From assembly GCA_023267655.1 (NCBI GenBank), contig JAHFMV010000003.1, positions 16,522 to 80,521 on the forward strand: DNA of 64,000 nucleotides, written 5' to 3'. Below are positions 42,714 through 63,413 of this stretch, in pieces (position 1 is the stretch's first letter; each line of letters begins with the position of its first letter). The notes beneath the pieces were generated by a model. It searched no databases. It was not told where the DNA came from and saw only the letters and a list, made by a program, of their open reading frames with translations. Position numbers and translations under genes: made by a program. This stretch comes from Candidatus Kaiserbacteria bacterium (GTDB lineage Bacteria > Patescibacteriota > Minisyncoccia > Phycocordibacterales > UBA2100).

Positions 42714-43928
42714 TTAGAACGGGTTGCGCGGCCCGCCGCGGATTTCAAAGTGAACGTGCGGCCCCGTCGCCTTACCCGTCTGACCCTCGTAACCGATGAC
42801 CTGTCCTTGGATGACGTGCTCGCCGACTCCCACGATGACCGATGAGGCATGTGAGTAAAGAGTTTGCGTGCCATTTCCGTGCTGGATGACGACATAGTTC
42901 CCATAGCCACCGTTCCACGCGCCATTATTCTTTGCCACGATCACATTCCCCGTAGCAGAGGCAAGTATCGGCGAGCCGGCCGGCGCCGCGAGGTCAACGC
43001 CGTTATAGCCATGGATATCTTGCGTTTTCTTGTAACTTGCGAGCGGGGCAATGTAGTACCCAGAATACTCTGCTGACGTCGAATATTTTGCGGCTTCCAA
43101 GACTGACGATGCACCGCCCGATCGAGCGACAGACTTCGAAACAGGTGGTGGCGCTGCAATTTCACCGTTTGGAATGATGATTTCAGTCCCGACAGCAAGA
43201 TCGCCTTCAATGCCGTTATAGTTGGTGATTTCCGTTGCATCAGAACCGAATTTCTTTGCAACCGATGCCAAGGTATCGCCTTTCTTCACCGTGTACTTCA
43301 CGCCGGTCACGGGGAGGATCGTCAGCGTCTGCCCGACGCGGATGGTGCCGCTCGGTGGAATGTCATTGGCCCACTTGATGGTATTTGCCGTCACCCCGAA
43401 CATGCGGGCAATTCCGGAGAGCGTGTCTCCCGGACGCACGACGTACAGACTGATCGAAGAGCTCTTCGGCTTTTCAATATCGGCAATGGTTCCCGCTGGA
43501 CCTTCTTCGGCGACCAGCGCACTATCATCGACAATAATCACGTCCCCGCCGCCTTTCGCGGGATTCGGGTCGATGTTCATTGCCGGTTTCGGAAGCGGCA
43601 TCGTCTGCACGCTTTTGCTGACCACACTTGAAGACGCTTCTGCTTTTCCTTGCCAGAGGGATTTTACATCATCAAAAACGCCCGCCTTCGTTTGGGCGGG
43701 ATAGAAAAGAGTGAAAGAAAGTGCGCATGCGAGCGTAAGAAGTGTATACCACGCGCGTCCTGTGCTTTGAAAGTCATTGACTGCTGAAGAAACCGAGGGG
43801 CGGCTTGAAAAATGCTCTGACACCTCCAACAAAGCCTTGCGGCTTGTTTGAGGATTCCATTTTGAACTTACAATATGCTTGTTTGAACAGCTTGCCCGCA
43901 GTGGGGTGAGTAGAGAGGGTTTCCACAC
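42714..43928 (-). CDS. M23-family peptidase with two LysM domains
   Basis: LysM repeats (YVVRPGDTLSGIARMFGV..., YTVKKGDTLASVAKKFG...) and M23 catalytic motifs HxxxD / HVHFE. Confidence 0.8.
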   Translation of the reverse strand: MWKPSLLTPLRASCSNKHIVSSKWNPQTSRKALLEVSEHFSSRPSVSSAVNDFQSTGRAWYTLLTLACALSFTLFYPAQTKAGVFDDVKSLWQGKAEASSSVVSKSVQTMPLPKPAMNIDPNPAKGGGDVIIVDDSALVAEEGPAGTIADIEKPKSSSISLYVVRPGDTLSGIARMFGVTANTIKWANDIPPSGTIRVGQTLTILPVTGVKYTVKKGDTLASVAKKFGSDATEITNYNGIEGDLAVGTEIIIPNGEIAAPPPVSKSVARSGGASSVLEAAKYSTSAEYSGYYIAPLASYKKTQDIHGYNGVDLAAPAGSPILASATGNVIVAKNNGAWNGGYGNYVVIQHGNGTQTLYSHASSVIVGVGEHVIQGQVIGYEGQTGKATGPHVHFEIRGGPRNPF

Positions 43929-47369: not shown

Positions 47370-47416
47370 CCAGCCTAGTAGAAAAGAGTGCCCCGCACTC
47401 TTTTCTCACTGGCTGG
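47370..47416. other. ~21-bp near-perfect hairpin (ccagcctagtagaaaagagtg-ccccg-cactcttttctcactggctgg) between the two paralogs
   Basis: Read directly from sequence. Confidence 0.45.
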
Positions 47417-47778: not shown

Positions 47779-48738
47779 ATGCCCCCCAGCCACGAGTACC
47801 CCATAGCGCCAACTCCAGTTGCAGAAGTTGTGGCCGCAACACCACCCGTAGAAAAAAAGGGCTGGGTGCACCGTCATTCGTATCTCACCGCCGCACTCGG
47901 AACTTTTTTTCTCATCGTTCTCGTGGTTCTGATCGTCGCAGCGCGCAGCGGCGTCTCTGGTTCTGATAATGCAAACAACTGGGTCGGCGCAGGTAGCGTC
48001 TTTTTCACCGGCGGTCGCAATTTGACACAAGAAGACCGAATGAAAGCTGAGACAGCGGTGAAGCAACAGTCACCAGAAACACAGCTTGGGTATATCCCGC
48101 TCCCGACCAACGCTGCCACAGCAGGGGGAAATGACTTCGGGAATGATTTGACCGCGCTCCTCGCGCAGCTAACGCAGCCAACAAAGACATCGGCGGGGGG
48201 TGGTGTGGACGCGAGTGTCGGTAGCGCCTTCTCCTTCATCCCGCAAGGCTTTATCAGCACCAATTCGAGTGGGAAGAAACTCACCCGCGACCAAGAAGCG
48301 CTCCAGGCATACGGTAACGAGCTTGGAACCTACATTCAAGGGTATGAAAGCTTGCACGGAAACTCCGCACAAATGCTCAAAGACCAAGCGGAAGACCGTA
48401 CCAATTCCGATAAGGCGATGCAAGTGAAGAATCTTGGCTACGACATGGCAGCGCTCGGGAGAGACATGCTGCAAATGACCGAGTTGCCGGATAGCGTGAA
48501 GGCGGCGCACCAGGCGCTCGCGACCTCGTATCGCATCGCGGGGACGAATTTGACGAAAATTCCTGATGCAAAGACAGATCAAGAATTCCTCGATGCTATT
48601 GCTGGATACAACGAGAGCGTCGAGTCGCTCTCGAAGCGATTTTTTGTGATGGTTGGCATCTTCAGTGCCAACAATGTTACGTTTTCATCATCGGATCCGG
48701 GCAGTATCTTCATGTTTAATCCGAATCTTTCACTGTAG
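47779..48738 (+). CDS. hypothetical membrane-anchored protein (319 aa)
   Basis: Internal ATG 47779; TM LTAALGTFFLIVLVVLIVAA. Confidence 0.4.
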   Translation: MPPSHEYPIAPTPVAEVVAATPPVEKKGWVHRHSYLTAALGTFFLIVLVVLIVAARSGVSGSDNANNWVGAGSVFFTGGRNLTQEDRMKAETAVKQQSPETQLGYIPLPTNAATAGGNDFGNDLTALLAQLTQPTKTSAGGGVDASVGSAFSFIPQGFISTNSSGKKLTRDQEALQAYGNELGTYIQGYESLHGNSAQMLKDQAEDRTNSDKAMQVKNLGYDMAALGRDMLQMTELPDSVKAAHQALATSYRIAGTNLTKIPDAKTDQEFLDAIAGYNESVESLSKRFFVMVGIFSANNVTFSSSDPGSIFMFNPNLSL

Positions 48739-48776: not shown

Positions 48777-49631
48777 GTGCGCTTACTTATGCGTGGGTCA
48801 TCGCCCATTCTTGTTACGGCCGCACTTTCACTTGCGGTCTTACTTCTCGCTCTTGGCGTGCACCTTGGTGCACGTGCGCATACGGCGCGCGCTATCATCG
48901 ATCCAAACCGCGCACTTGCGACACTGCCGACGTATCTCACGATCGATGATCGAAACGGCAACGGTATTCCTGATTGGCAAGACGAACTCACCCACAGTGG
49001 TATCGCTGCGAGCACGAGCACCGATTCAAACACTCTCGCTACTGCGGATCCGCTCACAGCACTCGCCAATCAAGTCGCGGGCGCACTCTATGGCGGATAC
49101 CTCTCGCTTAAACAAAACGGTGAATACTCGTCTGCGCGCGCAGCAACGCTCGGGACAAACATCGCGACAAACCTCCAAGCGCCGGATACGTTCGTTCCGC
49201 ACACGGTGGACGACCTCACGATCGACGAGGACACGACAGAGGCGCGCATTTTAAAATACCGCGCCGATTTGCGCGTCGCACTCGCCCCGATGGTGACTGA
49301 TGATCCGCCAGAAATTGAATACTTTGCGAGCTATGTCGTGACGAAAGATCCTTCGTGGATTACGAAACTCTCCGATGCCGCGGCGAGGTACGCAGCCGCG
49401 GAGAAAAATATGCTCACGGTGAGTGTGCCGAAAGATGGTGTGCCGGAACATTTGCGCGCGCTCAATGCGCTTGGCGCATATGCGAGCACCCTGAATCGCA
49501 TGCCGCCGTATATGAACGATACGTTCGCCTCGCTCGCCCTCTTGAAGACTTTAAACGCCGACGAAGAAGACATGCTCCGCTCGTTTGATGCCCTTGCACA
49601 ATATTATGTACGCACTGTCGCAACAAAATAA
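48777..49631 (+). CDS. hypothetical membrane-anchored/secreted protein
   Basis: N-terminal hydrophobic segment ILVTAALSLAVLLLALGV. Confidence 0.35.
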   Translation: MRLLMRGSSPILVTAALSLAVLLLALGVHLGARAHTARAIIDPNRALATLPTYLTIDDRNGNGIPDWQDELTHSGIAASTSTDSNTLATADPLTALANQVAGALYGGYLSLKQNGEYSSARAATLGTNIATNLQAPDTFVPHTVDDLTIDEDTTEARILKYRADLRVALAPMVTDDPPEIEYFASYVVTKDPSWITKLSDAAARYAAAEKNMLTVSVPKDGVPEHLRALNALGAYASTLNRMPPYMNDTFASLALLKTLNADEEDMLRSFDALAQYYVRTVATK

Positions 49632-51234
49632 ATATTTCCTGTGGGCATCGGTCGCAGCGATTGCGATCATTCTCTTTTCTGCCTCCACAGCTTTTGCGGT
49701 TGACCCCGCGGTCGGAACACCACCAACGCAAACCACACCGACACAATCATCTGGCACGCTCTCGCGCGATGGCGTGTTCGGCTGCCGCGCGGCGCAATAC
49801 GCGAACATCGGCACCTTGACCGCGATCGGCGGCGTGTATGTGCCGGTGAACGACGCTGCGGTCACGCTGAATACCGGCTATTTGGTGTATAAGGAATGTG
49901 TGCTTGATGGTGTGGTATCGGCCATCAAAAATAGCGAGGTTGCGGACTTGCAGGCCGCGGCGCAGAGGGCGACTGAGACGAGTCGCGGCGGAAATGCACA
50001 GTACTTGCGGAATTTTGAGAAAGACTTGCGGCCACAACTTGATCAAATCATCGTTGAAGCTGTCACAGCTGCAAAGTCCGGCAGTATGTGCAATGCATTT
50101 AAAAATACGGTGCCAACTGCTGTCGCCCGTAGCTACTATCAGGGCTCGCGCCAACCAGGAGACGAGCAGCTCTGCCCGTTTGTGCAATCGGACGCAGAGC
50201 GGCAAGCACTGGTCAGCGGTTCTTCACCTGTAAATTGGAGTTCATTCAACTCACTAATACAGCCGGGCGGCTACGAGATCAGCGAATACTACCTGCTCAA
50301 AGCCCAGACCGAATCGCAGATGGCAACCTATGATTACAATATTCGCGAACAGCTTGGGTGGGGAAATGGCTTCTTTCCTGCGTTTGATACCGCCTCAAAT
50401 CCGCTCGCAAAGAACGTGATCACTCCCGGCTTTACGATTGCACAATCGTTGCAACGCCTCCTCAGCGCCGGCACAGACATTCTCGTGAATGCAAATGAGA
50501 TCGACCAAGTGAATGGTGCACTGCAAGCGGGCTTACAGAGCACGATAGTCTCCGACACCATCCGCGGGCTCTCGGGTCTCGCTCGTTCGCAAAATGGACA
50601 GCCGTCGTATCTCGATCGCATGACCGCAGAGGCGTCATCTGCCGTGCGCGCAAGCGCAGTAAATGCGGCGCTTTCGATTCTCTCGGCAGCACGCCAAGTC
50701 GAGACGCTGTATAAGGCTGCAAAAGAAGCAATCGCACAGGCACTCACCGACGCCATCAATAAACTCCGTGGTGCAGAAACTACATGCTGGGGATTGATCG
50801 TGCCAAAGGTAAAAGAACAAGCAGCAAATCAGGGCATATCGCTGCGCATCGCGACCACCACCGAATTCTCACAAAAAGTCATCGACGAAAACATTCAACC
50901 GCTCGCAACCGTGACCGTGCGCGATTTGCGCATCTCAACCGACGCGCTGAATCTCATCAACCAACTCATCGCGAGCGTGACGAACACCTCATCGACCGCG
51001 GCACAGCGCGCGGCGCTCGAGCGGCTCGATAGTTTGGTCGCGAATAACCAACTGCACAGTTCGTCGGAAGCACAGACTGCACAAAAACAGAAGGATGATG
51101 TGACGACGGCGATCGGTACGCTCGTCGATTCAACCCTCAAAGATTGGGGCGATTCAACGGATACGTCGGTCGGCTGGTGCAATGTGAACAACCCCGATGT
51201 CATTACGATGTGGTTGAATAAGTGGAAAATATAG
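49606..51234 (+). CDS. secreted protein of the T4SS-like cluster (541 aa)
   Basis: Signal peptide MYALSQQNKYFLWASVAAIAIILFSASTAFA; Ala/Gln/Thr-rich; first gene of a co-directional cluster. Confidence 0.45.
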   Translation: MYALSQQNKYFLWASVAAIAIILFSASTAFAVDPAVGTPPTQTTPTQSSGTLSRDGVFGCRAAQYANIGTLTAIGGVYVPVNDAAVTLNTGYLVYKECVLDGVVSAIKNSEVADLQAAAQRATETSRGGNAQYLRNFEKDLRPQLDQIIVEAVTAAKSGSMCNAFKNTVPTAVARSYYQGSRQPGDEQLCPFVQSDAERQALVSGSSPVNWSSFNSLIQPGGYEISEYYLLKAQTESQMATYDYNIREQLGWGNGFFPAFDTASNPLAKNVITPGFTIAQSLQRLLSAGTDILVNANEIDQVNGALQAGLQSTIVSDTIRGLSGLARSQNGQPSYLDRMTAEASSAVRASAVNAALSILSAARQVETLYKAAKEAIAQALTDAINKLRGAETTCWGLIVPKVKEQAANQGISLRIATTTEFSQKVIDENIQPLATVTVRDLRISTDALNLINQLIASVTNTSSTAAQRAALERLDSLVANNQLHSSSEAQTAQKQKDDVTTAIGTLVDSTLKDWGDSTDTSVGWCNVNNPDVITMWLNKWKI

Positions 51235-51235
51235 T

Positions 51236-53458
51236 ATGCACACACTCACAACACTACGCACATCGCCGATTGCAAGACTCCTCGTCGTCATCTTCTTGTG
51301 CATGACGCTTTTCAGTCTCTCGCTTCCGATGGTGGTGTTTGCGCAGACGACAGACGATGGTTCGGGTACAGTGGCTCCGACTCCCGCGGGGTCGCAGACA
51401 CCGCCTACGGATCGTTGTGCGTGGTATAGCTCGTGGTCGAGTCCAGTTACGTGTATTTTTCGCGCACTATTTGTCGGAAGTTCCTCGGGTTTAATCTGGT
51501 TAACAGGCTGGATCCTTGGAATTGCTGGCGTGCTTTTTAATGCAGCGCTTGAATTTACGACGCAGGGATTTGATTCGCAGATTTACGCAAAAATACAAGG
51601 AGGCATTGAGGCCGTTTGGACGGCGTTTCGCGATATCGCCAATATCCTCATTATTGGAATGTTCACGTTTACCGCACTCACCATGATTCTCGGCATTGAA
51701 TCGTTCAACGCAAAGAAAATGGTCGCGAAAGTTCTCCTCATCGCCGTTCTCATCAACTTTAGTCTCCTATTCACGCGACTTGTCATTGCGTCATCGAATT
51801 TTGTCGCGGTACAATTTTACAAGGCTGCGAAATTCGACACGAGTACCTCTCTAGCATCAGCGCAATCGGTAGCTGGCCAAACATCCCCATACAATCAATT
51901 TTCTGCGGGTATTTCTGGAAAATTTGCACAATTGATGGGGGTTGCTGGGTTTAGTGATTCTGCCGGGGCGCTCTGGGAAATTGCGCAAAAACAAGACAGT
52001 GGCTTACTTGCACTTGGCCAGGGTGTCTTGACCGCATTGATTTTTACCGGAGCGGCATTGGTATTTCTCTACGCATCATTTCTCCTTATCGCGCGAGCAA
52101 TTCTTTTTGTGCTGCTACTCATAACGTCTTCATTGGCATTTGCAGCGCACTTACTGCCCAGCAAGATCACCATGGGATACGATGGTTGGAGCGCGTGGTG
52201 GAGTTCTCTCCTTAAAAACGCGGTCTTCGGCCCGATGCTACTTATCCTTCTGTGGGCAACGATCCAACTAGGTGAGGGTATACGAGCAACAAACAGTACT
52301 TTGGGATCGCTTCTTGTTGATCCCGCAAAAGGAGGTGGTATCAATGCGCTCTTCAGTTATCTCCTTATCCTCGGCATGTTGTACGCTTCAATTAAGATCG
52401 CAAGTATGTTTGCAAATAAGGTTGGTGGATTCAATTGGGCAGCTGTTGCACCAGCCTGGACAGCAAACAAGATTATGGGATTTGGGGGATTTGGTGCTCG
52501 ACAAACAGTGGGTCGAGGTGGCGCATGGGTGGATAAAACCTTGACATCCCGTGCGGCTGCCCAGCCTGACACTTTCGGCGGTAAAATGCGCCGCAGTTTG
52601 CTTCAAATTGGAGCTTCAGCCGGAGCTGCGGCCACTAAACGCGACTTTAACTTGGCAAAGACAAAAGTCGGTGCAGAGCTCGGTGCCGTAAGTGGCCTTA
52701 AGATAGGGAAAGAAAAGGCGCTCGGTGGATTCGATGGAACAGAAAAGCGACGTGCAGAAGCATTCGCAGAACAGGGTGAAAAATTCGCGAAAGCGGCGAA
52801 AGATTTGAGCGCTGATACGAAAAAACAAATTGCGTTGCAAGGTAATCCTGAACTTCGCGATCGCTCAGAACGCGCAGACGCAAACCACGGACAAGCGGAT
52901 CGAGATAACCAAGCAAATCAACAAAGGGCGATGCAGCTTGCTGACGATCATCGTCGCGCAGTTCAAAATGAGGAGACGTTACGCACGAACGTTGAGCAAT
53001 TACGTTTGGACCGACAACAAATGGAACAGGACGTCCGTGCTGGCAGGCGACAACAATCAGAACTTGATGAGCAAGATAATCGTATTCGTGATACTCAATC
53101 TCGCATCATCGATTCGAGACAACGAAATTCTACGCTCCAGAGACAAGTTGATGATGCTCGGCGTACGGCAAATGAATCTCAACAAGCATTCACTCAAGCC
53201 GCGAGAAACGTGCAGAATGTTACGAAAGAGATTGAGGATCGCTTTAGCGCAGGTGGATTTGCCGAAAATCTCGCTTATAATCGCTTGAGCAACACGCTGC
53301 TGAAGCCCGCTGACGCAAAAGATGACGCATTGGCCCAGAGAGCACGTGCGGCAACTGGCGATCGTGCCCGCAAAAAACGTTTGCGTGACGCGTTAGCAGA
53401 CGACGTTCGAGACACGACGAGAGAATTCCAACCGCCACCAGCCCCAACAAACCATTAA
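51236..53458 (+). CDS. VirB6/TrbL-like polytopic membrane protein with C-terminal charged coiled-coil extension
   Basis: At least 7 hydrophobic segments in the first 400 aa, then a 300-aa R/Q/D/E-rich region; position and topology fit VirB6/TrbL. Confidence 0.5.
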   Translation: MHTLTTLRTSPIARLLVVIFLCMTLFSLSLPMVVFAQTTDDGSGTVAPTPAGSQTPPTDRCAWYSSWSSPVTCIFRALFVGSSSGLIWLTGWILGIAGVLFNAALEFTTQGFDSQIYAKIQGGIEAVWTAFRDIANILIIGMFTFTALTMILGIESFNAKKMVAKVLLIAVLINFSLLFTRLVIASSNFVAVQFYKAAKFDTSTSLASAQSVAGQTSPYNQFSAGISGKFAQLMGVAGFSDSAGALWEIAQKQDSGLLALGQGVLTALIFTGAALVFLYASFLLIARAILFVLLLITSSLAFAAHLLPSKITMGYDGWSAWWSSLLKNAVFGPMLLILLWATIQLGEGIRATNSTLGSLLVDPAKGGGINALFSYLLILGMLYASIKIASMFANKVGGFNWAAVAPAWTANKIMGFGGFGARQTVGRGGAWVDKTLTSRAAAQPDTFGGKMRRSLLQIGASAGAAATKRDFNLAKTKVGAELGAVSGLKIGKEKALGGFDGTEKRRAEAFAEQGEKFAKAAKDLSADTKKQIALQGNPELRDRSERADANHGQADRDNQANQQRAMQLADDHRRAVQNEETLRTNVEQLRLDRQQMEQDVRAGRRQQSELDEQDNRIRDTQSRIIDSRQRNSTLQRQVDDARRTANESQQAFTQAARNVQNVTKEIEDRFSAGGFAENLAYNRLSNTLLKPADAKDDALAQRARAATGDRARKKRLRDALADDVRDTTREFQPPPAPTNH

Positions 53459-53462
53459 TTAT

Positions 53463-54077
53463 ATGTCCGACGATAAGAAAACTTTGGATGTTGAACTAAA
53501 GGAACGCTTTGCTCAACTTCCTAAAGTTGTACAAAATGCAATTACCTCAGCAGAGGTTGAAAAATTACTGCGGAGCTTGGCTGATACTCAAAAATTACAT
53601 TTGGATCAGTGGCAATCCTTGGAAAACGAAGTCATGATGGCGTTACTGGGCGTACAACCCATTGGAAATTTACAAGAAAACATCGGTAAGGAAGTTGGGG
53701 TGAGCGCTGATGTAGCTAAAACGCTCGCAGAAAATATCAACAAAATCGTCTTCGAACCCATTCGCCAAGAACTCGAACGCCAGCTAGAGCATCCGGAGGC
53801 GCAAGCGAAGCAGGTGAGTACCATTGAGGCGGCGCGGGCAGAGACGCTTGCGGGGGCGCAGCCGGCAGCCGGGAGCCAGCAGCCGGGAGCTAATTCAGAA
53901 TCCGCTCCGAGCTCCGGGCTACAGGCTCCAAGCTCGGTTCTACCGGCAACACCACCATCGCTCGTGCCTGACATAAAAGTCACGCGCCCCTCTGAATCAA
54001 CCGCCTATAAACCGGGCGAACCATCAACACAGCGCGCCGCGGTGCACGACGACCCGTATCGGGAGCCGCCACTCTAG
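53463..54077 (+). CDS. hypothetical protein (204 aa)
   Basis: ORF only; its stop overlaps the left arm of the IVS cassette. Confidence 0.4.
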   Translation: MSDDKKTLDVELKERFAQLPKVVQNAITSAEVEKLLRSLADTQKLHLDQWQSLENEVMMALLGVQPIGNLQENIGKEVGVSADVAKTLAENINKIVFEPIRQELERQLEHPEAQAKQVSTIEAARAETLAGAQPAAGSQQPGANSESAPSSGLQAPSSVLPATPPSLVPDIKVTRPSESTAYKPGEPSTQRAAVHDDPYREPPL

Positions 54078-54510
54078 GTGACAGGTTCCAGGTGTCAGGT
54101 TTTAGGGAAAATACATGGATAAAATTCGATCGTACAAAGATCTTATTGTTTGGCAGAAAGCGATTGGCGTTGTCACTGACGTGTATCTAACGACCAAGAA
54201 ATTTCCTTCAGAAGAGCGATTTGGACTTTCTTCACAAATGCAACGCGCGGCTGTTTCGATAGCTGCAAACATTGCAGAAGGACACGGGCGTGGAACACGA
54301 AGTGACTATGCTCACTTTTTGGATATGTCAAATGGCTCGGTATCCGAATTGGAGACGCTCTTCATCATTGTCAGAAAACTATCATATTGTTCGGACGAAC
54401 AATGTAGTAAAATAGAAGGACAGTTACATGAAGTTGGGAAGATGCTTGGATCTCTCCGAAGTAAGTTACGTGTTCGCCCCTAGCACCTAGAACCTAACAC
54501 CTGGAACCTA
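54074..54510 (+). other. cassette: four-helix-bundle gene bracketed by family-B inverted repeats (aggttccaggtgtcaggttttagg 54084-54107 versus cctagaacctaacacctggaacct 54485-54508)
   Basis: Arms are reverse complements at ~20 of 22 positions. The insert 54108-54484 is almost exactly the 369-bp gene. Confidence 0.7.
54115..54483 (+). CDS. four-helix-bundle protein of the 23S rRNA intervening-sequence protein family (second copy)
   Basis: MDKIRSYKDLIVWQKAIGVVTDVY...AAVSIAANIAEGHGR parallels the 7140-7508 paralog. Confidence 0.7.
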   Translation: MDKIRSYKDLIVWQKAIGVVTDVYLTTKKFPSEERFGLSSQMQRAAVSIAANIAEGHGRGTRSDYAHFLDMSNGSVSELETLFIIVRKLSYCSDEQCSKIEGQLHEVGKMLGSLRSKLRVRP

Positions 54511-54515
54511 ATTCT

Positions 54516-55022
54516 ATGCAATTCCAAGTTCCCCAGTTCATTGAGGTCGAGGACAAGATCTTTGGGCCTCTCACCTTCAAACAATTCGTCTACATCGCAG
54601 GAGGCGCCGGCTGCGGCTATCTGCTGTGGCGCGTTCTTCCTATTTACCTCGCCGCCCCCCTTATCGCCGGCGTCGTCGGCCTCGGCGCGGGGTTGGCCTT
54701 CTTCAAATACAACGGCCAGCCCTTTATCCTCGCCCTCGAGCATGGTTTTTTCTTCTTTGTACGCAGCAAGCTCTACCTCTGGAGCAATGAAGTGCGCGAT
54801 ACTACGAAAAAGAAAGATCTCGCGGCACAAATAGCCGCTCCCGCAGCACAGATTTACGTCCCGAAGCTCTCCGACGGCAAGCTGCACGAGCTCGCGTGGA
54901 GTCTCGACATCAAAGAGCGCATCGCAGGAGGAACTGCCGATGACGACGAGCGCGCAGACAGCTCACCACTGAAGGGCATCATCGCGCCCGTCCGTACCGC
55001 GCGTGAGGCGCTCATTAACTAG
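54516..55022 (+). CDS. PrgI-family (VirB3-like) T4SS membrane protein
   Basis: MQFQVPQFIEVEDKIFGPLTFKQFVYIAGGAG followed by two TM helices matches the PrgI family N-terminal pattern. Confidence 0.55.
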   Translation: MQFQVPQFIEVEDKIFGPLTFKQFVYIAGGAGCGYLLWRVLPIYLAAPLIAGVVGLGAGLAFFKYNGQPFILALEHGFFFFVRSKLYLWSNEVRDTTKKKDLAAQIAAPAAQIYVPKLSDGKLHELAWSLDIKERIAGGTADDDERADSSPLKGIIAPVRTAREALIN

Positions 55023-55115
55023 CCAATAGCCACTAGGTATTTGCCACTAGAAAATGCATATGAATCCAAAAATTTCCTTAATGTATTGGCCAGTGGCTAG
55101 TCGCTAGTGGCTAAT
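55017..55115. repeat. inverted pair of family-A repeats (taactagccaatagccactagg ... attggccagtggctagtcgctagtggctaat) ending 10 nt before the ATG at 55126
   Basis: Read directly; the spacer contains CATATGAAT..TTCC, also seen in the 55820-55850 spacer. Confidence 0.7.
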
Positions 55116-55125
55116 AACTATTTTT

Positions 55126-55800
55126 ATGCCTGAAACCGTCACCTCAACAAAGCCGACCAGCAAATCGACACAGCAATTTGTGCCGGTTTCCGAAGTGCGC
55201 GACGGTATCTTGATCCTCAAGGACAAGAGCCTGCGTGCGATCCTTCTTGCGTCGTCGATCAATTTTGCGCTTAAATCTGAAGACGAACAGACGGCGTTTA
55301 TCGTGCAATTCCAAAACTTTCTCAACTCGCTCGACTTTTCGTGCGAAATTTTCGTGCAATCGCGCATGCTCGACATCCGCCCGTACATTGCATCCCTCGA
55401 GGTCGCCTACAAAGGGCAGCTCGACGACCTTATGCGCATCCAAATTCGCGAATACATCGAATTCATCAAGAGCTTTACCGAGGCCGCGAACATCATGACG
55501 AAAAATTTCTTCGTCGTCGTCCCGTATTCGTCGACGGCGATTTCGCTTTCCGGCAGTGGCGGCATCGCGGGGAAATTACCGTTTGGACGCAAAAAAAATA
55601 CGGCAGAGGATGCGAACCGTTCGTTTGAAGAGCAGGTCTCACAGCTTGAGCAACGCATTTCGATCGTGCAGCAGGGTCTCGTGCGCTGCGGCGTACGCAC
55701 CGTGCAGCTTGGAACCGAAGAGGCGATCGAACTGATGTACAAACTCTTCAACCCGGGCGAAGAAGGGAAGCCGATGACGCTGGATGCAGGTGCCAGGTGA
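55126..55800 (+). CDS. VirB4/TrsE-like N-terminal domain encoded as a separate ORF
   Basis: FVPVSEVRDGILILKDKSLRAILLASSINFALKSEDEQ resembles the N-terminus of Gram-positive-type VirB4 ATPases; stop codon lies inside a family-B repeat arm. Confidence 0.45.
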   Translation: MPETVTSTKPTSKSTQQFVPVSEVRDGILILKDKSLRAILLASSINFALKSEDEQTAFIVQFQNFLNSLDFSCEIFVQSRMLDIRPYIASLEVAYKGQLDDLMRIQIREYIEFIKSFTEAANIMTKNFFVVVPYSSTAISLSGSGGIAGKLPFGRKKNTAEDANRSFEEQVSQLEQRISIVQQGLVRCGVRTVQLGTEEAIELMYKLFNPGEEGKPMTLDAGAR

Positions 55801-55879
55801 CAGGTTCCAGGTTACAGTAAAATATAAATACAATACATCATATGAATTTCCTAGAACCTAACACCTGGAACCTGTAACC
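55794..55879 (+). repeat. family-B inverted pair (ggtgacaggttccaggt 55796-55812 / acctggaacctgtaacc 55861-55877) with 48-nt AT-rich loop, separating the two VirB4 ORFs
   Basis: 17-bp stem with one mismatch; forward arm CCTAGAACCTAACACCTGGAACCT ends 5 nt before the ATG at 55882. Confidence 0.65.
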
Positions 55880-55881
55880 TT

Positions 55882-58800
55882 ATGGCTTTATTGGATCTTT
55901 TCAAAAAATCTTCGGTCCCCGCGGCGACGGTGCTGCCGGTCCTTCCGGAAGAAATCTACCGCACTGGCGTCCTCGGCCTCCAGGACGTGATCGCACCGCA
56001 CGCACTTCGCGTCTCGCCGCGCGAGCTCGACCTTGGCGAAAAAATCGCGCGCACGTTTTTTGTGATCTCATACCCGCGCTTCCTCACGACGGGGTGGTTT
56101 GCGCCGATCATCAACATGGACAAGGTGCTCGACATCGCGATTTTCATCCATCCGATGGACACGAACGAAATGCTGCGCAAATTTCAGAAAAAAGTCGCCG
56201 AGGTGCAAAGTCAGATCGCGACGCGTGAGGAAAAGGGGATGGTGCGCGACCCAATGCTCGATACCGCATATCAAGACCTCGAAAAATTGCGCGACTCTCT
56301 GCAACAAGCGCAGGAACGCATTTTTGATGTCGGACTCTACCTCACGATCTACGGCTCGAGCCGCGAAGAAATAGATAAGGTAGAGAGCGAAATCCGCTCG
56401 ATCCTCGAGAGCCGCCTCGTGTACATCCGCCCGGCACTTTTCCAGCAAGAACAAGGCTTCCGCTCGACGCTCCCGATTGCGACCGATGAATTAAACGTCC
56501 ACACGAAACTCAATTCGGCGCCGCTCTCGTCCATCTTCCCGTTTATTTCATTCGACCTAACGTCCGACAGGGGAATCCTTTACGGCATCAACCGCCACAA
56601 TTCGTCACTTATTTTGTTCGATCGATTTTCTTTGGAGAATTATAATTCGGTCACTTTCGCAAAGTCGGGAGCAGGTAAGAGCGTCTGCTACGAAGAGCCC
56701 GTTTTGACACGTGAAAGCGGAATCATACGTTATGCGCCAATTGGTCAAGTGGTGGAAAAAACTATTAAAAAACATGGTTGCAGAAAGATTGACGACGAGT
56801 TAGAGGGAGTTATCGATCCGGGTATTGAAGTGTTCAGTTTTGATCAAGACATGCGGGGGCGTTGGAGTAAAGTATCGGTCGCTGCACGAAAAGATGCCCC
56901 AGATACATACTACGCATTCAGGACAAAAAGCGGCCGCGAGGTAACAACTACTGCTGATCACAACATGCTAGTCTTACGACGCGGGAAAGTTATTGCCGCG
57001 AAAAGTGAAAATGTGAAAGAGGGAGAGTATATTCCTCTGCCGCGCAGCGTGCATCCATCCCTGCACTCCCCCCGTCATATAGGATCTAGCCTCTTGCCGG
57101 TAACAGAACATCTCAGTTCTGTCCTTGGTTGGATCGCAGCAGAAGGGACTATCGCGAAACGCTCGATCATTATCAGCAACACCGATCAGGAATCACTGTC
57201 ACACATTGAAAATGAATGTCGAGCCCTCGGTTTTTCCTGCGGCAGCAACAAGCGGTGGGTTGCCATTTATGGCAAACGTGTCTGTGAACAGCTAAAAGCC
57301 CTTGGCGCAACGGGAAAATCCGGTACTAAAACAGTCCCCGGATTTCTTTTTAACACGTCGCGCGATGTGGTCGCCTCATACCTGCAAGCGTATTTCGAAG
57401 GTGATGGCGGTGTAGAAAATCACGAAATTACTGCGCTTTCAAAGTCGAAAGAGCTGATATCAGGGCTTTCGTATTTGTTGTACTACTTCGGCATTATTGC
57501 GCGGATACAGAAGCGGCAGAAGAAATACGCGAAGACGGGACGCAAAAGGACATTCTGGATGCTTAGCATTTCAGGTCAGGATAATATCCGGAAATTCCAA
57601 GAGCACATCGGCTTTATTTCGACGCGAAAAAAGGAGGCCCTCGCGAAAATCGCCGTTAAAAACGGAAATACCAACTGCGATATCGTGCCGGGACTACAAC
57701 CGCTTGCGAAAGAGCTTGAACTCCTTTTCGATACGCAGCTGTCGGACATATCCGACTTCTCCGCGCTCAAGCAGGGTCACGGCCTCTCGCCGACTCGGCT
57801 CGGAACACTTGTCGATACAATGGAGGCGCGCGTGCGGCGGTTCAAGGACTTGTATCCTTTCATGCAGAAATTGCAGGATCTGCCGACTGTTGAAGCGATT
57901 ATCAAAAAAGCTGATGGAGATCGCGATTTGAATCACAGGCTTATTGAAACAATGAGCAGCTCATGGTTTACGGTCAAGCAAGGAATGCCACCACGAACGA
58001 AAAATGCGCTGAAAATCTTTGAAACTGCAGGTGTCGAAGCTCCAAAAACCATCGACGAATTAAAGGGGATGGTGGAGAGCGGCGTCTCGAATTTGCGCGT
58101 CCCGAGGAGCGATTTTGATGAGTACCTTACGAGATCCCTGCATGGTACTCGCGACAATTCGTCGTACGAACTCCTACGCACCGCATCACAATTTATTTTT
58201 TGGGAGTACCGCCGCACGCTACACAACTTGCATCGCGTCGAAGAAATCATCGCTATGTTTAAGACGCTCGTGAACGCCGACCTTTTCTGGGATCCGATTG
58301 TTTCTATCGTGAAAAAGGCCAACAAAAAAGACAAGTATGTATACGACCTCACCGTTGACGACGAAGTGTTCCTCGCGGGACACGGCGGCATGTTCGTGCA
58401 CAATTCATATACGACGAAGCTTGAGATTCTGCGCTCTTTAATGTTCGATACGGAAGTCATCGTCATCGACCCGGAACGCGAATACGAATATCTCGCGACG
58501 ACCGTCGGCGGCCGCTACTTCAACATTTCACTCTCCTCCGAACACCATATCAATCCGTTTGATCTCCCCATCCCACGTGAAGACGAGAACCCCGGCGACA
58601 TTTTGCGCAACAACATCATTACGCTCGTTGGCCTCTTCCGCATCATGCTCGGCGGACTTACGCCAGAAGAGGACGCCGTCATCGACAAGGCGATTACGGA
58701 AACCTACGCACTCAAAGACATTACGCAAGACGCGAATTTCGCCTCTATCGAGCCGCCGCTCCTCTCCGACTTTGAACTGGTCTTAAGCGGCATGGAAGGA

Positions 58801-59685
58801 TCAGAATCACTCGTCGCGCGCCTTTCGAAATATACGAAAGGCACGTGGTCGGGATTCATGAACCGCCCGACCAACGTCGATATGAACAAAAAACTTACGG
58901 TCTTTTCCGTGCGCGATATGGAAGATGATTTGAAGCCGGTCGCGATGTACATCATTACACACCACATTTGGAACACGGTAAGGAAAGAACTGCGAAAGCG
59001 CCTGCTTGTGATCGACGAGGCGTGGTGGATGATGAAATCGCAAGACACGGCGAGCTTCCTTTTCGGTATTGCAAAGCGCGGCCGTAAATACTATCTCGGT
59101 CTCTCGACGATTACGCAGGACGTCAACGACTTTCTCACCTCACCGTACGGCGCGGCGATGATCACGAACTCATCAATTCAGCTCCTTCTGCGCCAATCAC
59201 CGACGTCGGTTGATCTTGTACAAAGCACGTTCAAATTGACTGATGAAGAAAAGTATTTGCTCCTCGAATCCGACGTGGGGGAGGGGATTTTCTTCGCCGG
59301 ACTGAAGCATGTTGCCATCAAAGTCATCGCCTCGTACACCGAAGACCAAATCATTACCTCCGATCCGTCGCAAATCCTCGCTATCAAGAAAGCAAAAATG
59401 GATCTCGCTTCTGCAAACGATACAAGCGCACCTGCCGCACCACGACAGAGCGCCGCTGATATCTTAAAAGCCGCGGCCATGAAGGAATCGAGCGGTATCG
59501 CGCAGCAGGCCGCTACCGAGGCACTACCAACGCAAACACCAGCGGCAAGCACAGAATCCGACAATCCGCTTCCACCGCCCCCAACACCGACTCCTACTCC
59601 ACCGCCCTCGCCTGTCGCGCCTGCACCTGCGGCACCCACCGCGCCCTCGCTTCCACCCGAAGCAAATCCTGATCGTCCGGTATGA
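55882..59685 (+). CDS. VirB4/TraE-like T4SS ATPase (extein ~694 aa) interrupted by an in-frame 573-aa intein
   Basis: Walker A FAKSGAGKS immediately before the intein; C-extein SYTTKLEILRSL...LLVIDEAWWMMKS (DEAW Walker-B-like) and conserved VirB4 C-terminal region; Pro-rich tail. Confidence 0.8.
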   Translation: MALLDLFKKSSVPAATVLPVLPEEIYRTGVLGLQDVIAPHALRVSPRELDLGEKIARTFFVISYPRFLTTGWFAPIINMDKVLDIAIFIHPMDTNEMLRKFQKKVAEVQSQIATREEKGMVRDPMLDTAYQDLEKLRDSLQQAQERIFDVGLYLTIYGSSREEIDKVESEIRSILESRLVYIRPALFQQEQGFRSTLPIATDELNVHTKLNSAPLSSIFPFISFDLTSDRGILYGINRHNSSLILFDRFSLENYNSVTFAKSGAGKSVCYEEPVLTRESGIIRYAPIGQVVEKTIKKHGCRKIDDELEGVIDPGIEVFSFDQDMRGRWSKVSVAARKDAPDTYYAFRTKSGREVTTTADHNMLVLRRGKVIAAKSENVKEGEYIPLPRSVHPSLHSPRHIGSSLLPVTEHLSSVLGWIAAEGTIAKRSIIISNTDQESLSHIENECRALGFSCGSNKRWVAIYGKRVCEQLKALGATGKSGTKTVPGFLFNTSRDVVASYLQAYFEGDGGVENHEITALSKSKELISGLSYLLYYFGIIARIQKRQKKYAKTGRKRTFWMLSISGQDNIRKFQEHIGFISTRKKEALAKIAVKNGNTNCDIVPGLQPLAKELELLFDTQLSDISDFSALKQGHGLSPTRLGTLVDTMEARVRRFKDLYPFMQKLQDLPTVEAIIKKADGDRDLNHRLIETMSSSWFTVKQGMPPRTKNALKIFETAGVEAPKTIDELKGMVESGVSNLRVPRSDFDEYLTRSLHGTRDNSSYELLRTASQFIFWEYRRTLHNLHRVEEIIAMFKTLVNADLFWDPIVSIVKKANKKDKYVYDLTVDDEVFLAGHGGMFVHNSYTTKLEILRSLMFDTEVIVIDPEREYEYLATTVGGRYFNISLSSEHHINPFDLPIPREDENPGDILRNNIITLVGLFRIMLGGLTPEEDAVIDKAITETYALKDITQDANFASIEPPLLSDFELVLSGMEGSESLVARLSKYTKGTWSGFMNRPTNVDMNKKLTVFSVRDMEDDLKPVAMYIITHHIWNTVRKELRKRLLVIDEAWWMMKSQDTASFLFGIAKRGRKYYLGLSTITQDVNDFLTSPYGAAMITNSSIQLLLRQSPTSVDLVQSTFKLTDEEKYLLLESDVGEGIFFAGLKHVAIKVIASYTEDQIITSDPSQILAIKKAKMDLASANDTSAPAAPRQSAADILKAAAMKESSGIAQQAATEALPTQTPAASTESDNPLPPPPTPTPTPPPSPVAPAPAAPTAPSLPPEANPDRPV
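56686..58404 (+). mobile_element. intein with LAGLIDADG homing-endonuclease domain inserted in the VirB4 P-loop
   Basis: Block A CYEEPVLTRESGIIRYAPIGQVV (Cys1 at 56686), block B TTTADHNMLV, DOD motifs LGWIAAEGTI and LQAYFEGDGGV, block F/G KYVYDLTVDDEVFLAGHGGMFVHN followed by Ser+1 (58405). Confidence 0.75.
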
Positions 59686-60716
59686 CGCGTGCGTTTACAT
59701 TCCTTTTCTCCCTTGTTCTTACGGCGTGCATGTGCACGCTGGTCAGCGCACAATCGCTCTCACTTGAAAAGCCGATCACACTGCAAATTTCTCCCGAAAA
59801 TCCAGAGCCTCACGAAATGGTACATCTCACCATTCAGAGCTACGCCATCGACTTGAACCGGAGCGACATCACGTGGCGCGCAAATGATACGGTGATTGCA
59901 CAAGGTGCTGGCATCAAAGAAGCGACGTTTACGACAGGGGACGCGGGCGAAGAAACCACTATCGTTGTGACCGCGATCGACCCGGACGAAGAAGTCGGCC
60001 GTGTCGTCGCCTCGGTCATTCCGACGGAAGTTGACCTTCTCTGGGATAGCGATTCGTATGTGCCGCCCTTTTTCAAAGGCCGCACTCCGGCAGGAACGGG
60101 CGCGAACGTGCACCTCTATGCTGCAGCGCGTTTCCCAACTCTCAAGGGAGTGTTCGTTTCTGACAGCGATATTATTTACACGTGGTCACAAAATGGAACC
60201 ATCCTCGGAAGTAAATCCGGCCGTGGAAGATCAAGTATCACCATCCCCGGTCCCGCGCTCTTTGGTGCAGATAGTGTAAAAGTCGACGCAGAAACGGTTG
60301 ACAAAACCATGCGCGGAAGCGCGACGGCACAGATTCCCGCCGCGGACACGCATCTCGTATTGTATGAAAACCATCCTCTCTTTGGAATTTTGTTCCACCG
60401 CGCGATTATCGGCGACGTGAACACGAAAGAAAAAGAGCAAAAAGTGACCGTCGTCCCGTATTTTGCGCACATCACGTCGCCGAGTGACCCGTCGCTGTCG
60501 TATGATTGGCACGTCAACGACACGCGTATCGCGCCTGATCCTCACAACCCCGAGACACTCACCATTGCGGCTAATAATTACAATGGCCCCGCCTCGATCG
60601 CACTCACCCTCTCGAGCGCAAGCGATATTCTGATGCATGCAACCGGCCTCTGGTCGCTCATCTTCTCCGACACCAGCTCACTCTTCGGCGGAACTACGAA
60701 TGGATTTGGCCAATAA
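59682..60716 (+). CDS. secreted hypothetical protein (344 aa)
   Basis: Signal peptide MTRAFTFLFSLVLTACMCTLVSA; beta-rich repeat-like sequence. Confidence 0.4.
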   Translation: MTRAFTFLFSLVLTACMCTLVSAQSLSLEKPITLQISPENPEPHEMVHLTIQSYAIDLNRSDITWRANDTVIAQGAGIKEATFTTGDAGEETTIVVTAIDPDEEVGRVVASVIPTEVDLLWDSDSYVPPFFKGRTPAGTGANVHLYAAARFPTLKGVFVSDSDIIYTWSQNGTILGSKSGRGRSSITIPGPALFGADSVKVDAETVDKTMRGSATAQIPAADTHLVLYENHPLFGILFHRAIIGDVNTKEKEQKVTVVPYFAHITSPSDPSLSYDWHVNDTRIAPDPHNPETLTIAANNYNGPASIALTLSSASDILMHATGLWSLIFSDTSSLFGGTTNGFGQ

Positions 60717-60717
60717 T

Positions 60718-62058
60718 ATGAACTACCAACGAATTTTCACGTACATTGGTGTCGCCGCGATCATACTCCTCCTTGTTGGGCTTCTTGGATGGTATTTCTT
60801 TATCCAGAAGGCAACACAATCGGTCCAAGGTGCGGACCAGGCACGTGGATTCTCTATCGGCATTCCGTCGTTCCTCGGGGGACAGGGCTCAAACGCGGCA
60901 AACACGAACACCGGCGGCTCTTCGGGAGCAAGTCTTGCGACACAACAAGAAACCGGATCCAAAGGAACACAAAGTGCACTCCTCAAATTCCTTGGTATTG
61001 GCGCACAACCACCACTTCAGGGCGCACGCGTTCCAACTTCTCCGCAGATGGCGCCCGCACAAGAGCCATTACAAAAGCGCGCGCCGCGCCTCTTCCATGC
61101 AAATCTCTCGCCGGTTGCGGGTGCTGCCTTCGTCGGATCAGGAAGTTCAACGCGACTGCGGTACGTCGAGCGGGCGACGGGAAATGTCTTTGATGTGAGC
61201 CCGGAGAGCGGCGATATTGTGCGCATTACCAACACGCTTATTCCCAAAGTGTATGCGGCATCAATGGGAAGTGGCGGCATCGTCGTTGAACGAACGCTTG
61301 AAGATGGTGCGCCTACCGCGCTTGTCGGGAAAATTGGCACGTCAACCGACGGGCTTGCCGCACTGAATACAAAAAATCTTGGCTCGAATGTCCGTGAAAT
61401 CGCGAGCATTCCAACTTCAAATAATATTGTGACTCTCACCCGCACCAACGCAGGGACGCGTCTCGTACGATCCGCATGGAACGGCGCATCTCCTCACGAC
61501 ATTGCATCAACCGCGGCGGGAGATTTCCGTATCCTCTGGCCATCCGACAACCGGATCTTTCTCGTTGAAAAAGCGGGAAGTGGCGTCTTGGGTAGTGCAT
61601 TCAATGTGGAGGGAGGAACTCTCACCGCACTGATCCGCAACATCCCCGGCCTCACGGTACTGCCACACCCATCGTCAGACGCACTTCTGTATGGCACGGA
61701 CGATGGCACGTCGCTCTCTCTCTTTGCACGGCCGGCAGGTGCGAGTGCGATAGAACTTCCGATCCATACCACCGCGGACAAATGCGTGTGGGGCGCCGGG
61801 ACAACCGCATACTGTGCGGTGCCCGATACAAAAACAGGCTCTGTGTTTCTTGATCGATGGTATCGTGGGGAGGTACACACCGAAGACACGTGGTACACCG
61901 TGGATACCGGCGCGGCAGATGCAACGAAACTGTTTACCTTGAGTACGAGCGATGCGGTCGATGTTGAATCACCAACCATCGATGCGGGCGGAAAGTATCT
62001 TGCGTTTCTCAACGCCCGCGACAAATCACTGTGGATATTCCGCATCAGCGACCAATAA
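60718..62058 (+). CDS. membrane-anchored hypothetical protein (beta-propeller-like ectodomain?)
   Basis: Internal ATG 60718 (MNYQRIFTYIGVAAIILLLVGLLGWYFF) preferred over the ORF-track start. Confidence 0.4.
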   Translation: MNYQRIFTYIGVAAIILLLVGLLGWYFFIQKATQSVQGADQARGFSIGIPSFLGGQGSNAANTNTGGSSGASLATQQETGSKGTQSALLKFLGIGAQPPLQGARVPTSPQMAPAQEPLQKRAPRLFHANLSPVAGAAFVGSGSSTRLRYVERATGNVFDVSPESGDIVRITNTLIPKVYAASMGSGGIVVERTLEDGAPTALVGKIGTSTDGLAALNTKNLGSNVREIASIPTSNNIVTLTRTNAGTRLVRSAWNGASPHDIASTAAGDFRILWPSDNRIFLVEKAGSGVLGSAFNVEGGTLTALIRNIPGLTVLPHPSSDALLYGTDDGTSLSLFARPAGASAIELPIHTTADKCVWGAGTTAYCAVPDTKTGSVFLDRWYRGEVHTEDTWYTVDTGAADATKLFTLSTSDAVDVESPTIDAGGKYLAFLNARDKSLWIFRISDQ

Positions 62059-62059
62059 C

Positions 62060-62443
62060 ATGCACAAAAATTTCCACCAAAAAACCAAATATCTTTTTCA
62101 GGCGGCGGGCACTGCTGTGTTAAACGGCGTCGGAAATGCACAACAATCACCCTTTCTTTCAAAATTATTTGACCCCAACACGACATCACTCGCACAATTT
62201 TTTAACGCGCTTTTCAAGGCAGCAATCGTGCTTGGCGCAATGTTCGCGGTTCTTCGCCTCGGCTACGCGGGATTTATGTATATGACGACCGACCTCCCGG
62301 GAACAAAGGGAAACGCTCGAGAAATTATCAGCAAGGCCGTTCTCGGTCTTTTACTACTTCTCGGCGTTTGGCTAATTCTTAATCAAATTAATCCGGACAT
62401 TTTGAACCTCGACATCTTAAGAAATATAAAAAGCGCCCCGTGA
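62060..62443 (+). CDS. VirB2/TrbC-like pilin-type small membrane protein
   Basis: Two hydrophobic helices (AQFFNALFKAAIVLGAMFAVLRLGYAGFMYM; AVLGLLLLLGVWLILNQI) after a cleavable-looking leader; last gene of the T4SS-like cluster. Confidence 0.35.
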   Translation: MHKNFHQKTKYLFQAAGTAVLNGVGNAQQSPFLSKLFDPNTTSLAQFFNALFKAAIVLGAMFAVLRLGYAGFMYMTTDLPGTKGNAREIISKAVLGLLLLLGVWLILNQINPDILNLDILRNIKSAP

Positions 62444-62493: not shown

Positions 62494-62763
62494 TTAGTGA
62501 CCGACTGTACCAGAGCCGTGACAGCGCGGACAAACCACGCGTCCCGTCCCCTGACACTGGCGACACTCTACTTGACGTGCACCCCTCTGAATGACACCAT
62601 TCCCTTTGCATCGTGGACAGTCAATCTGTCCCTTGCTTAAAAAGAAGTCCTTACAGCGTTGACAATCTCTTACGGCCATGACTTTTCCTTTCGTGCACTT
62701 GAGACATTCCACTTGCACCATCGCAAGCCATCCGTAATGTATACACACGGAAGGAAAAGTCAA
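62494..62763 (-). CDS. small DnaJ-type CxxCxGxG zinc-finger protein
   Basis: Repeats CPRCKGNGV, CRQCQGTGRV, CPRCHGSGTV. Confidence 0.5.
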   Translation of the reverse strand: MTFPSVCIHYGWLAMVQVECLKCTKGKVMAVRDCQRCKDFFLSKGQIDCPRCKGNGVIQRGARQVECRQCQGTGRVVCPRCHGSGTVGH

Positions 62764-63295: not shown

Positions 63296-63413
63296 CAGAT
63301 AATTTTCAATTCTCAATTTTCAGTGAATTTTCAATGTTCCAATGTTTGAAAATTGATTCATTCGAACTTGAATGAAAATTTGAAATTGATAATTGATAAT
63401 TGATAATTGAAAA
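63296..63413. repeat. AT-rich repetitive spacer (TTTTCAAT words, GATAATTGA x3 tandem, palindrome cattcgaacttgaatg) between yidC and jag
   Basis: Read directly from sequence. Confidence 0.6.

Follow-up and report, generated by a model that had tools for sequence, protein, structure and literature searches.

What does a bacterium with a streamlined genome that already encodes a type IV pilus do with a cluster of genes resembling a type IV secretion system (T4SS)? The cluster in question lies in a 64,000-nucleotide (64-kb) stretch of DNA from Candidatus Kaiserbacteria bacterium (contig JAHFMV010000003.1, positions 16,522 to 80,521; hereafter the window, whose own numbering is used throughout), where an earlier reading made from the letters alone had described about 13 kb of co-directional secretion or conjugation-like genes and suggested a minimal apparatus that might mediate host interaction. 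Few elaborate machines have survived in the ultra-small, host-dependent Patescibacteria; the T4SS is among them and has proved essential in the sole genetically tractable species. In the window, eleven co-directional plus-strand open reading frames (ORFs) were confirmed at 49606-62443, most of them separated by gaps of -4 to +4 nt, and the same order recurs in 60-80 other genomes, so the cluster is real and not a product of chance. We are close to certain that it is a T4SS of the chromosomal, origin-proximal kind already published for Patescibacteria, and by analogy with a characterized relative it probably acts as a secretion or contact machine at the host interface rather than in plasmid conjugation. 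The type IV pilus is also there, with PilB at 7544-9286 and PilC at 5877-7133. While the ORFs from 49606 onward stand as described, the conserved unit starts earlier, at ~47.8 kb (47779), because two further conserved orphan genes, U1 and U2, precede them.

The identity of the system is carried by its motor and core components, for which the calls of the sequence-only reading (a VirB4 ATPase with an intein, a separate VirB4 N-domain ORF, a PrgI/VirB3-like protein, and a VirB2-like pilin) were borne out by profile searches, that of the N-domain ORF by matches below cutoff. The VirB4 ATPase (55882..59685, +; ~692 aa post-splicing) passed the NCBIfam model conju_CD1110 (E 1.9e-98, 330.6 bits against a cutoff of 325) and matched Pfam P-loop_TraG (9e-19) together with Intein_splicing and LAGLIDADG_3; its Walker A (GAGKS) and Walker B (LLVIDEAW) motifs can be read directly in the sequence, and the scan of window ORFs turned up no FtsK-like ATPase. 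The PrgI/VirB3-like small membrane protein (54516..55022, +) matched PF12666 above cutoff (E 2.3e-11, 44.5 against 27 bits), as did the VirB2-like pilin (62060..62443, +), a protein with two hydrophobic helices encoded by the operon's last gene, for PF18895 T4SS_pilin (E 3e-8, 34.1 against 26.6 bits), with a further weak match to the Mbov_0395 pilin-like family (1.3e-3).

Upstream of virB4, a 224-aa TrsD-like protein (55126..55800, +) probably corresponds to a separate VirB4 N-terminal domain. Its NCBIfam matches are all below curated cutoffs and fall on the N-terminal parts of VirB4 models (VirB4_plasma 1.5e-10, model positions 96-233; CD1110 8e-6, model positions 2-118; TrsD 3.3e-5), but its orthologues carry a precomputed PF26593 TraC-like domain, and its position and size fit TrsD, the most common T4SS accessory in Patescibacteria (PMC12102498). 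The CD1110 model is in fact divided between the two genes, with positions 2-118 aligning to the 224-aa ORF and the remainder to the large one. Both ORFs lie in the same frame, and stop-codon readthrough or recoding was considered; it was ruled out by the four stop codons in the structured 81-nt spacer between them and by the split being found in every related locus. The divided TrsD/VirB4 is the normal state in this lineage.

The channel protein was more difficult to place. The product of the gene at 51236..53458 (+) is a polytopic membrane protein (~aa 60-400) with a charged C-terminal coiled-coil tail of ~260 aa, previously called VirB6/TrbL-like. No Pfam or NCBIfam match to TrbL, VirB6, or PrgH was obtained for this protein or for 27 homologues, and a profile search of the PDB returned only coiled-coil matches to the tail. 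Comparison of its predicted structure, in contrast, placed it with the VirB6 fold; the earlier call is supported by the predicted model and by no sequence profile. Identity to members of the VirB6 family is as low as 12% (TrwI of R388, PDB 7o3v) and 9% (DotA of Legionella, PDB 9ngy), and the extra ~260-aa tail, which distinguishes the protein from both, recalls the "extended VirB6" architecture. Such a structure-based VirB6 identification, missed by sequence searches, is one of the leads this locus offers.

Whether the cluster belongs to the core genome or to an accessory island was addressed by an alignment-driven scan with one genome per species, which yielded 80 loci and, with two further loci (L001 and L002), 82 for comparison; every window protein was searched against these by tblastn. 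(A scan of genome contigs with the VirB6-like protein alone had returned no match, whereas the alignment-based scan succeeded.) The conserved order reads ComM, an M23/LysM peptidase (-), UvrD, KsgA, U1, U2, A, VirB6-like, C, PrgI, TrsD-like, VirB4, D, E, pilin, Jag (-), and YidC (-), where A, C, D, and E denote orphan genes. Individual syntenic genes were recovered from 54-82 of the 82 loci, with contig ends accounting for most absences. Gene calls of L001 and L002 extend the order to RnpA, L34, and DnaA, and a second contig of the same organism carries pilin, Jag, YidC, RnpA, DnaA, and DnaN, with dnaA ~2.4 kb past the pilin gene. Homologues of the 51236, 49606, and 60718 products were found only in metagenome-assembled genomes of Kaiserbacteria, Paceibacterota, Parcubacteria, or Patescibacteria, the nearest being 44-75% identical. 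This gene order, which begins with M23/LysM, UvrD, and KsgA and ends with Jag, YidC, RnpA, and DnaA, is kept beside dnaA in ~60-80 species-level genomes, so that the cluster belongs to the core genome near the origin and not to an accessory island.

This arrangement bears directly on the idea that the genes belong to an integrative conjugative element (ICE) or a plasmid-derived island, either as a remnant or as an active part of it. Such an origin is suggested by the best VirB4 matches, which are to ICE-type families (CD1110 of a Clostridioides CTn and the Mycoplasma ICE VirB4), and by the weak similarity of the pilin to a Mycoplasma ICE pilin-like protein. However, position and order beside oriC are identical in ~60-80 species-level genomes, GC content and composition are the same as in the rest of the window, and VirB4 is conserved above its housekeeping neighbors. 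No relaxase, VirD4, TraG, TcpA, or FtsK domain was found among the scanned ORFs of the 64-kb window, in agreement with what had been noted for relaxase and VirD4; nor does any integrase lie in or beside the cluster, the sole integrase-family gene (30710-31618) being Xer-like and 16 kb away. Given the lack of a relaxase or coupling protein among the scanned ORFs and the fixed chromosomal position, a conjugative element is for practical purposes excluded, and we regard an ICE origin as highly improbable and largely refuted.

The degree of conservation differs sharply along the cluster. Median identity to the window proteins is 89% for the VirB4 exteins (68 loci), 77% for TrsD, 63% for PrgI (71 loci), 53% for the pilin (59 loci), and 49% for C (75 loci), and falls to 33-38% for U1 (33%, 71 loci), U2 (35%, 72 loci), A, the VirB6-like protein (33%), D (38%, 62 loci), and E. 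The flanking UvrD, KsgA, YidC, Jag, and ComM have medians of 58-68% (UvrD, KsgA, and YidC ~58-61%). A value of 89% represents unusually strong constraint for a secretion ATPase. A motor more constrained than its housekeeping neighbors, combined with fast-diverging exposed parts, fits an indispensable machine whose outer parts may track different hosts, and this contrast between an extremely conserved motor and quickly diverging envelope components is a second lead.

The closest published counterparts are the chromosomal T4SSs of other Patescibacteria. According to a recent survey (Quinonero-Coronel 2025; PMC12102498), the VirB4 of this phylum is sister to MPF-FATA, TrsD is encoded beside VirB4, the repertoire further includes PrgI, VirB6, and VirB2-like pilins, relaxases are rare, and the T4SS lies near dnaA, dnaN, ksgA, rnpA, and rpmH; Patescibacteria T4SSs are also reviewed in PMC12857230. 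In Ca. Southlakia epibionticum (Saccharimonadia), transposon sequencing revealed that the T4SS is essential for epibiotic growth; delivery of DNA or protein, or some other mode of action, was proposed for it (Wang 2023; PMC10633639). The Kaiserbacteria cluster shares with the S. epibionticum ML1 system (SEML1_0006-0019; PMC10633639) and those surveyed (PMC12102498) a chromosomal location, an MPF-FATA-like VirB4, a probable TrsD-like protein encoded next to it, PrgI/VirB3, VirB6, and a VirB2-like pilin; like these systems, it includes no relaxase or coupling protein and adjoins dnaA, rnpA, rpmH, and ksgA. It differs from them in having a single pilin gene instead of an array of six, and in having no lysozyme or peptidase downstream of virB4 but an M23/LysM gene upstream on the other strand. 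It also includes six orphans confined to a Kaiserbacteria-like clade (U1, U2, A, C, D, and E) and a VirB6 that escapes sequence profiles, and its VirB4 carries a P-loop intein, whereas inteins are not mentioned in PMC12102498.

More distant relatives are the Gram-positive MPF-FATA systems (pCF10 Prg/Pcf, CTn2 CD1110, and pGO1 Trs), with which the cluster shares the VirB4 family (the CD1110 model being passed), PrgI, an N-domain that is probably separate and of the TrsD type, like that of pGO1, and a monoderm architecture from which VirB7, VirB9, and VirB10 are absent. Unlike them, it has no recognizable relaxase, type IV coupling protein (T4CP; PcfC/TcpA), PrgK-type hydrolase, PrgL/VirB8-like protein, or PrgB adhesin; it includes a VirB2-like pilin, which the Gram-positive systems lack, and it occupies a fixed chromosomal locus and is not part of a mobile element. 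The window therefore adds a well-resolved example from an uncultivated Kaiserbacteria-like lineage and leaves the current picture of the system unchanged; what is new is a VirB6 identified at the level of its fold, a set of six clade-specific orphans, the contrast in conservation, an intein sporadically present in the P-loop, and stem-loop elements with or without genes of the intervening sequence (IVS) type.

A role at the host interface is favored because the homologous S. epibionticum system is essential for growth on its host. The proposal of a minimal apparatus for host interaction in a reduced genome is thereby supported, in most of its components by profiles and in its function by analogy. 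In a plausible scheme, TrsD and VirB4, docked on PrgI and VirB6, would power a channel across the single membrane, while the pilin and the fast-evolving U1, U2, A, D, and E would build the wall-spanning, host-contacting part and could take the place of VirB8 and an adhesin, which are missing here. Opening of the cell wall may fall to the conserved M23/LysM peptidase, and the intein would have to splice out of the P-loop before VirB4 could bind ATP. The resulting machine would mediate an obligatory exchange with the host cell, either by transfer of proteins or other macromolecules or by pilus-mediated contact.

The last of these options can be taken further, in that translocation may have been lost, with the system only assembling a VirB2-type pilus or adhesive fiber for host attachment beside the type IV pilus. 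The conserved VirB2-like pilin that closes the operon, a number of quickly evolving proteins, secreted or anchored, that fit adhesion, and the lack of a substrate-recruiting coupling protein among the scanned ORFs are all in line with this. However, known T4SSs without a T4CP (Ptl and Brucella VirB) still secrete proteins (PMC12102498). Nor do the very strong conservation of VirB4, TrsD, and PrgI and the retention of a VirB6-like channel protein discriminate, as pilus biogenesis would lead one to expect them too. A pilus-only device thus appears improbable, marginally more so than the main rival, a machine that imports or exports DNA (ComB-like or Ced-like), supplying nucleotides or DNA to a cell unable to produce its own and working with ComM and UvrD, which we consider unlikely.

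This DNA-transport alternative owes its rank as the main rival to ComM and UvrD, both conserved neighbors upstream. It draws further on a weak match of VirB4 to the archaeal DNA importer CedB (3.4e-7), on comF, recG, and radA lying beside the T4SS in class ABY1 (PMC12102498), and on the ancestral role of the T4SS family in DNA transport. The CedB match, however, covers only a generic P-loop (29 bits against a cutoff of 700), the operon holds no DNA-binding or DNA-processing protein, and UvrD and KsgA are ordinary origin-proximal housekeeping genes. In S. epibionticum, moreover, deletion of comEC abolishes competence with viability unaffected, and the T4SS is still essential (PMC12857230, citing Wang 2023).

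Several points nevertheless weigh against a secretion or contact machine at the host interface, or at least against its details: (i) function is carried over from another class (Saccharimonadia), and Kaiserbacteria have neither culture nor genetics; (ii) VirB6 is assigned from a predicted model, with no sequence profile behind it; (iii) no cluster protein gave a profile match to VirB8/PrgL-like or VirB1-like families; (iv) the fold search with orphan A was non-specific; (v) the suggested roles of U1, U2, A, C, D, E, and the M23 peptidase follow from gene position only; (vi) the search for a T4CP or relaxase covered 64 kb of the genome, and in many Patescibacteria VirD4-like genes lie apart from virB4 (PMC12102498); and (vii) ComM and UvrD in the conserved neighborhood leave room for a DNA-related role.

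All six orphan families are confined to the Kaiserbacteria-like clade, and as a set they are the obvious candidates for the host-contact structure; four of them are secreted or membrane-anchored. U1 (47779..48738, +; start as in the gene call of locus L083) has an N-terminal membrane anchor and opens the conserved block, and U2 (48777..49631, +) begins with a hydrophobic N-terminal anchor or signal. Orphan A (49606..51234, +) has a signal peptide and five invariant cysteines, and its predicted model, of moderate confidence (pLDDT 73.5, pTM 0.46), is elongated and all-helical. Because A ends 1 nt before the VirB6-like gene, we hypothesize that it could be a VirB5-like stalk or tip partner. Orphan C (53463..54077, +) is a small soluble protein with an invariant D197-P-Y-R-E201 near its C-terminus, after a proline-rich linker; this DPYRE could be a docking or recognition peptide.

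On the other side of virB4, orphan D (59682..60716, +) has a signal peptide and repeated W-x-x-N-G motifs and is beta-rich, probably with three Ig/PKD-like repeats; weak Ig_3 and PKD matches occur in a few members of its family. Orphan E (60718..62058, +; the public gene call begins at 60700) combines an N-terminal membrane anchor with a conserved C-terminal domain that contains a Cys356/Cys366 pair, the two being joined by a low-complexity linker, and its 79 homologues, all from Kaiserbacteria or Parcubacteria-type genomes, have no precomputed Pfam domain. That the secreted and anchored proteins belong to no recognizable family, as the sequence-only reading had it, agrees with these searches: Pfam and NCBIfam assigned none of them to a family within the cluster, no Pfam match was found for U1, U2, and C, nor for the VirB6-like protein, A, D, and E in 25-28 orthologues each (save the weak Ig/PKD matches of D), PDB sequence-profile searches with the VirB6-like protein, A, C, D, and E gave nothing meaningful, and the fold search for A was uninformative. 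The M23/LysM peptidase (42714..43928, -; Pfam Peptidase_M23 3e-28, LysM 3.5e-26), found at the same position in 55 related loci, is a candidate peptidoglycan-remodeling, VirB1-like helper, an association suggested by its place beside the cluster; M23/LysM domains do occur on VirB1-like proteins of Patescibacteria (PMC12102498).

Two features inserted into this conserved framework, the intein and the stem-loop elements (especially those with IVS-type genes), are likelier than the cluster itself to lead somewhere new. The intein comprises 575 aa (S267-N841; 56680..58404, +) and lies within the P-loop of VirB4, between Lys266 and the Ser of Walker A (GAGK|S). It starts with Ser1 and ends in His-Asn (HN841), followed by a +1 Ser (S842); intein-free homologues read GAGKSYTTKLE, whereas the window protein reads GAGK-SVCYEEP...GMFVHN-SYTTKLE. 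Intein_splicing (PF14890, 1e-16), LAGLIDADG_3 (PF14528, 1e-17), TIGR01445, and TIGR01443 all matched, and both LAGLIDADG motifs (GWIAAEG and YLQAYFEGDG) are intact in the window copy. Among 68 related loci, only three (L050, L056, and L058) carry an intact intein at the identical site; these inteins are 64-71% identical to each other, whereas the exteins are ~90% identical. GC content is 49.0% in the intein (computed from 56683, one codon inside the 56680 boundary) against 53.6% in the exteins.

These features point to a sporadic selfish insertion with the signature of a homing intein, which by its motifs is of class 1 with a LAGLIDADG endonuclease. In its class, its endonuclease, its Walker A site in an ATPase, and its sporadic distribution, it resembles known VirB4 inteins and other P-loop inteins (Novikova et al. 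2016; PMC4760082). The five VirB4 inteins reported there come from Firmicutes and Proteobacteria, whereas the host here is a patescibacterial VirB4 of the core genome. It is this position, in the P-loop of an apparently indispensable ATPase, that makes the insertion of interest.

The gene at 54115..54483 (+), which had been counted in the row of T4SS genes, does encode a four-helix-bundle protein of the IVS type (PF05635 23S_rRNA_IVP, E 1e-37; TIGR02436, 120 bits against a cutoff of 24). It is, however, an inserted element and not a T4SS component: it occupies the junction of C and PrgI in only 15 of 76 related loci, in an mRNA spacer rather than an rRNA gene. The surrounding element (54075..54510) has arms of tandem YAGGTKN heptamers, 54075-54106 against 54486-54510, which are 92% complementary over 24 nt (TAGGTGA CAGGTTC CAGGTGT CAGGTTT versus CACCTAG AACCTAA CACCTGG AACCTAA). 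The stop codon of gene C marks the beginning of the first array, and 5 nt separate the end of the second from the PrgI start; the arms alone fold at -40.4 kcal/mol (z -7.6). An origin of this Avd-like four-helix-bundle gene in a diversity-generating retroelement was set aside, since bAvd/Avd matches were below cutoff and no reverse transcriptase was present among the scanned ORFs.

Two further spacers of the operon hold ORF-less elements. The 81-nt TrsD-to-VirB4 spacer belongs to an element of the same kind without the ORF (55787..55881, +), with CAGGTKN heptamer arms, an AT-rich loop, and a fold of -37 kcal/mol (z -7.1), and the 103-nt PrgI-to-TrsD spacer (element at 55017..55123, +), which is no longer than 20 nt in 53 of 69 related loci, contains an inverted repeat built on another repeat unit, GCCACTAG, with 55010-55130 folding at -36.7 kcal/mol. 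The window contains 17 copies of the motif CAGGTTNCAGGTT where 3 would be expected, and only one of them lies outside three elements. A second ORF-carrying element (7102-7542), inside the type IV pilus operon, places an IVS-type gene between pilB and pilC; its ORF (7142-7507, -) encodes MIQRFTDLRVWQEGHSL...NIAEGF..., and its arms (7102-7144 and 7506-7542) are made of GTATWCC heptamers. With additional stem-loop elements at 2637-2726, 3316-3407, 9293-9369, 33669-33799, and 63300-63416, the window holds at least nine, three of them within the T4SS operon and two around pilB.

In the related loci, the TrsD-to-VirB4 spacer falls into three size classes: it measures 1-17 nt in 36 loci, 66-140 nt in 27, and 381-476 nt in 5. 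An IVS-type ORF is present in four of the five longest spacers, the exception being that of L066, and in 15 of the 27 intermediate ones a predicted hairpin spans the spacer (z below -3), with arms whose sequence varies from species to species. Of 16 loci, 13 have the IVS-type ORF between complementary arrays. Junctions that hold an element in some species are empty in others (L003-L082), and the heptamer unit varies by element and by species. Over 1.55 Mb of related loci, 281 hairpins with stems of at least 16 bp were counted against ~52 in shuffled sequence (~5-fold); period 7 dominates among the periodic arms, and a class of loop lengths stands out at 340-420 nt. The loop motifs AAAATRC and YATGAA, as well as a pyrimidine tail before ATG, were enriched, although these motifs were picked after viewing the sequences.

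Bacterial 23S rRNA intervening sequences, which RNase III excises (PMC11270868), have this same architecture of a PF05635 ORF within a long stem, but here it occurs in mRNA spacers. IVP ORFs have been described inside rRNA insertions of the candidate phyla radiation (PMC11270868), and heptamer direct repeats just upstream of start codons are found in Beggiatoaceae, Cyanobacteria, and Bacteroidetes (PMC4679880); a limited literature search found no description of the paired-array, ORF-carrying form. Rfam, at gathering and permissive thresholds, recognized only four tRNAs in the window and none of the stem-loop elements. We tentatively propose, at somewhat less than even confidence, a family of IVS-like elements with heptamer-array arms that extend from the stop codon of one cistron to within a few bases of the next start codon, enclose either a short AT-rich loop or a complete PF05635 gene, and punctuate both operon and genome, possibly as mobile units or RNase III substrates. 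The elements may be mobile, with the ORF-less versions as miniature derivatives of the ORF-carrying ones. They may also, by analogy with rRNA intervening sequences, be RNase III substrates that lead to mRNA cutting and set downstream translation.

A few other features of the window deserve mention. A scan of the cluster for promoter and terminator consensus sequences gave counts at or below chance. Between the pilin gene and Jag, a small ORF (~62500-62683, -) encodes repeated CxxCxGxG motifs (DnaJ-type zinc-finger-like) and is absent from the matching 20-nt gap in L001. Three copies of a ~85-nt core (CCGAACACGAACTGA...ACGTCACATCTACTACTGTA...CTGCTGCGCGATGTTCTCTC) lie at 1028-1162 (-), 5736-5868 (-), and 12804-12936 (+), each closed by a different stem of 18-27 bp and with no Rfam match at any threshold; they could represent a small RNA or another repeat family. 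Finally, two strong hairpins are present, one between KsgA and U1 (47368-47418; 24-bp stem, 3-nt loop) and one downstream of the CCA-adding enzyme gene (26564-26681; 32-bp stem, -72.6 kcal/mol).

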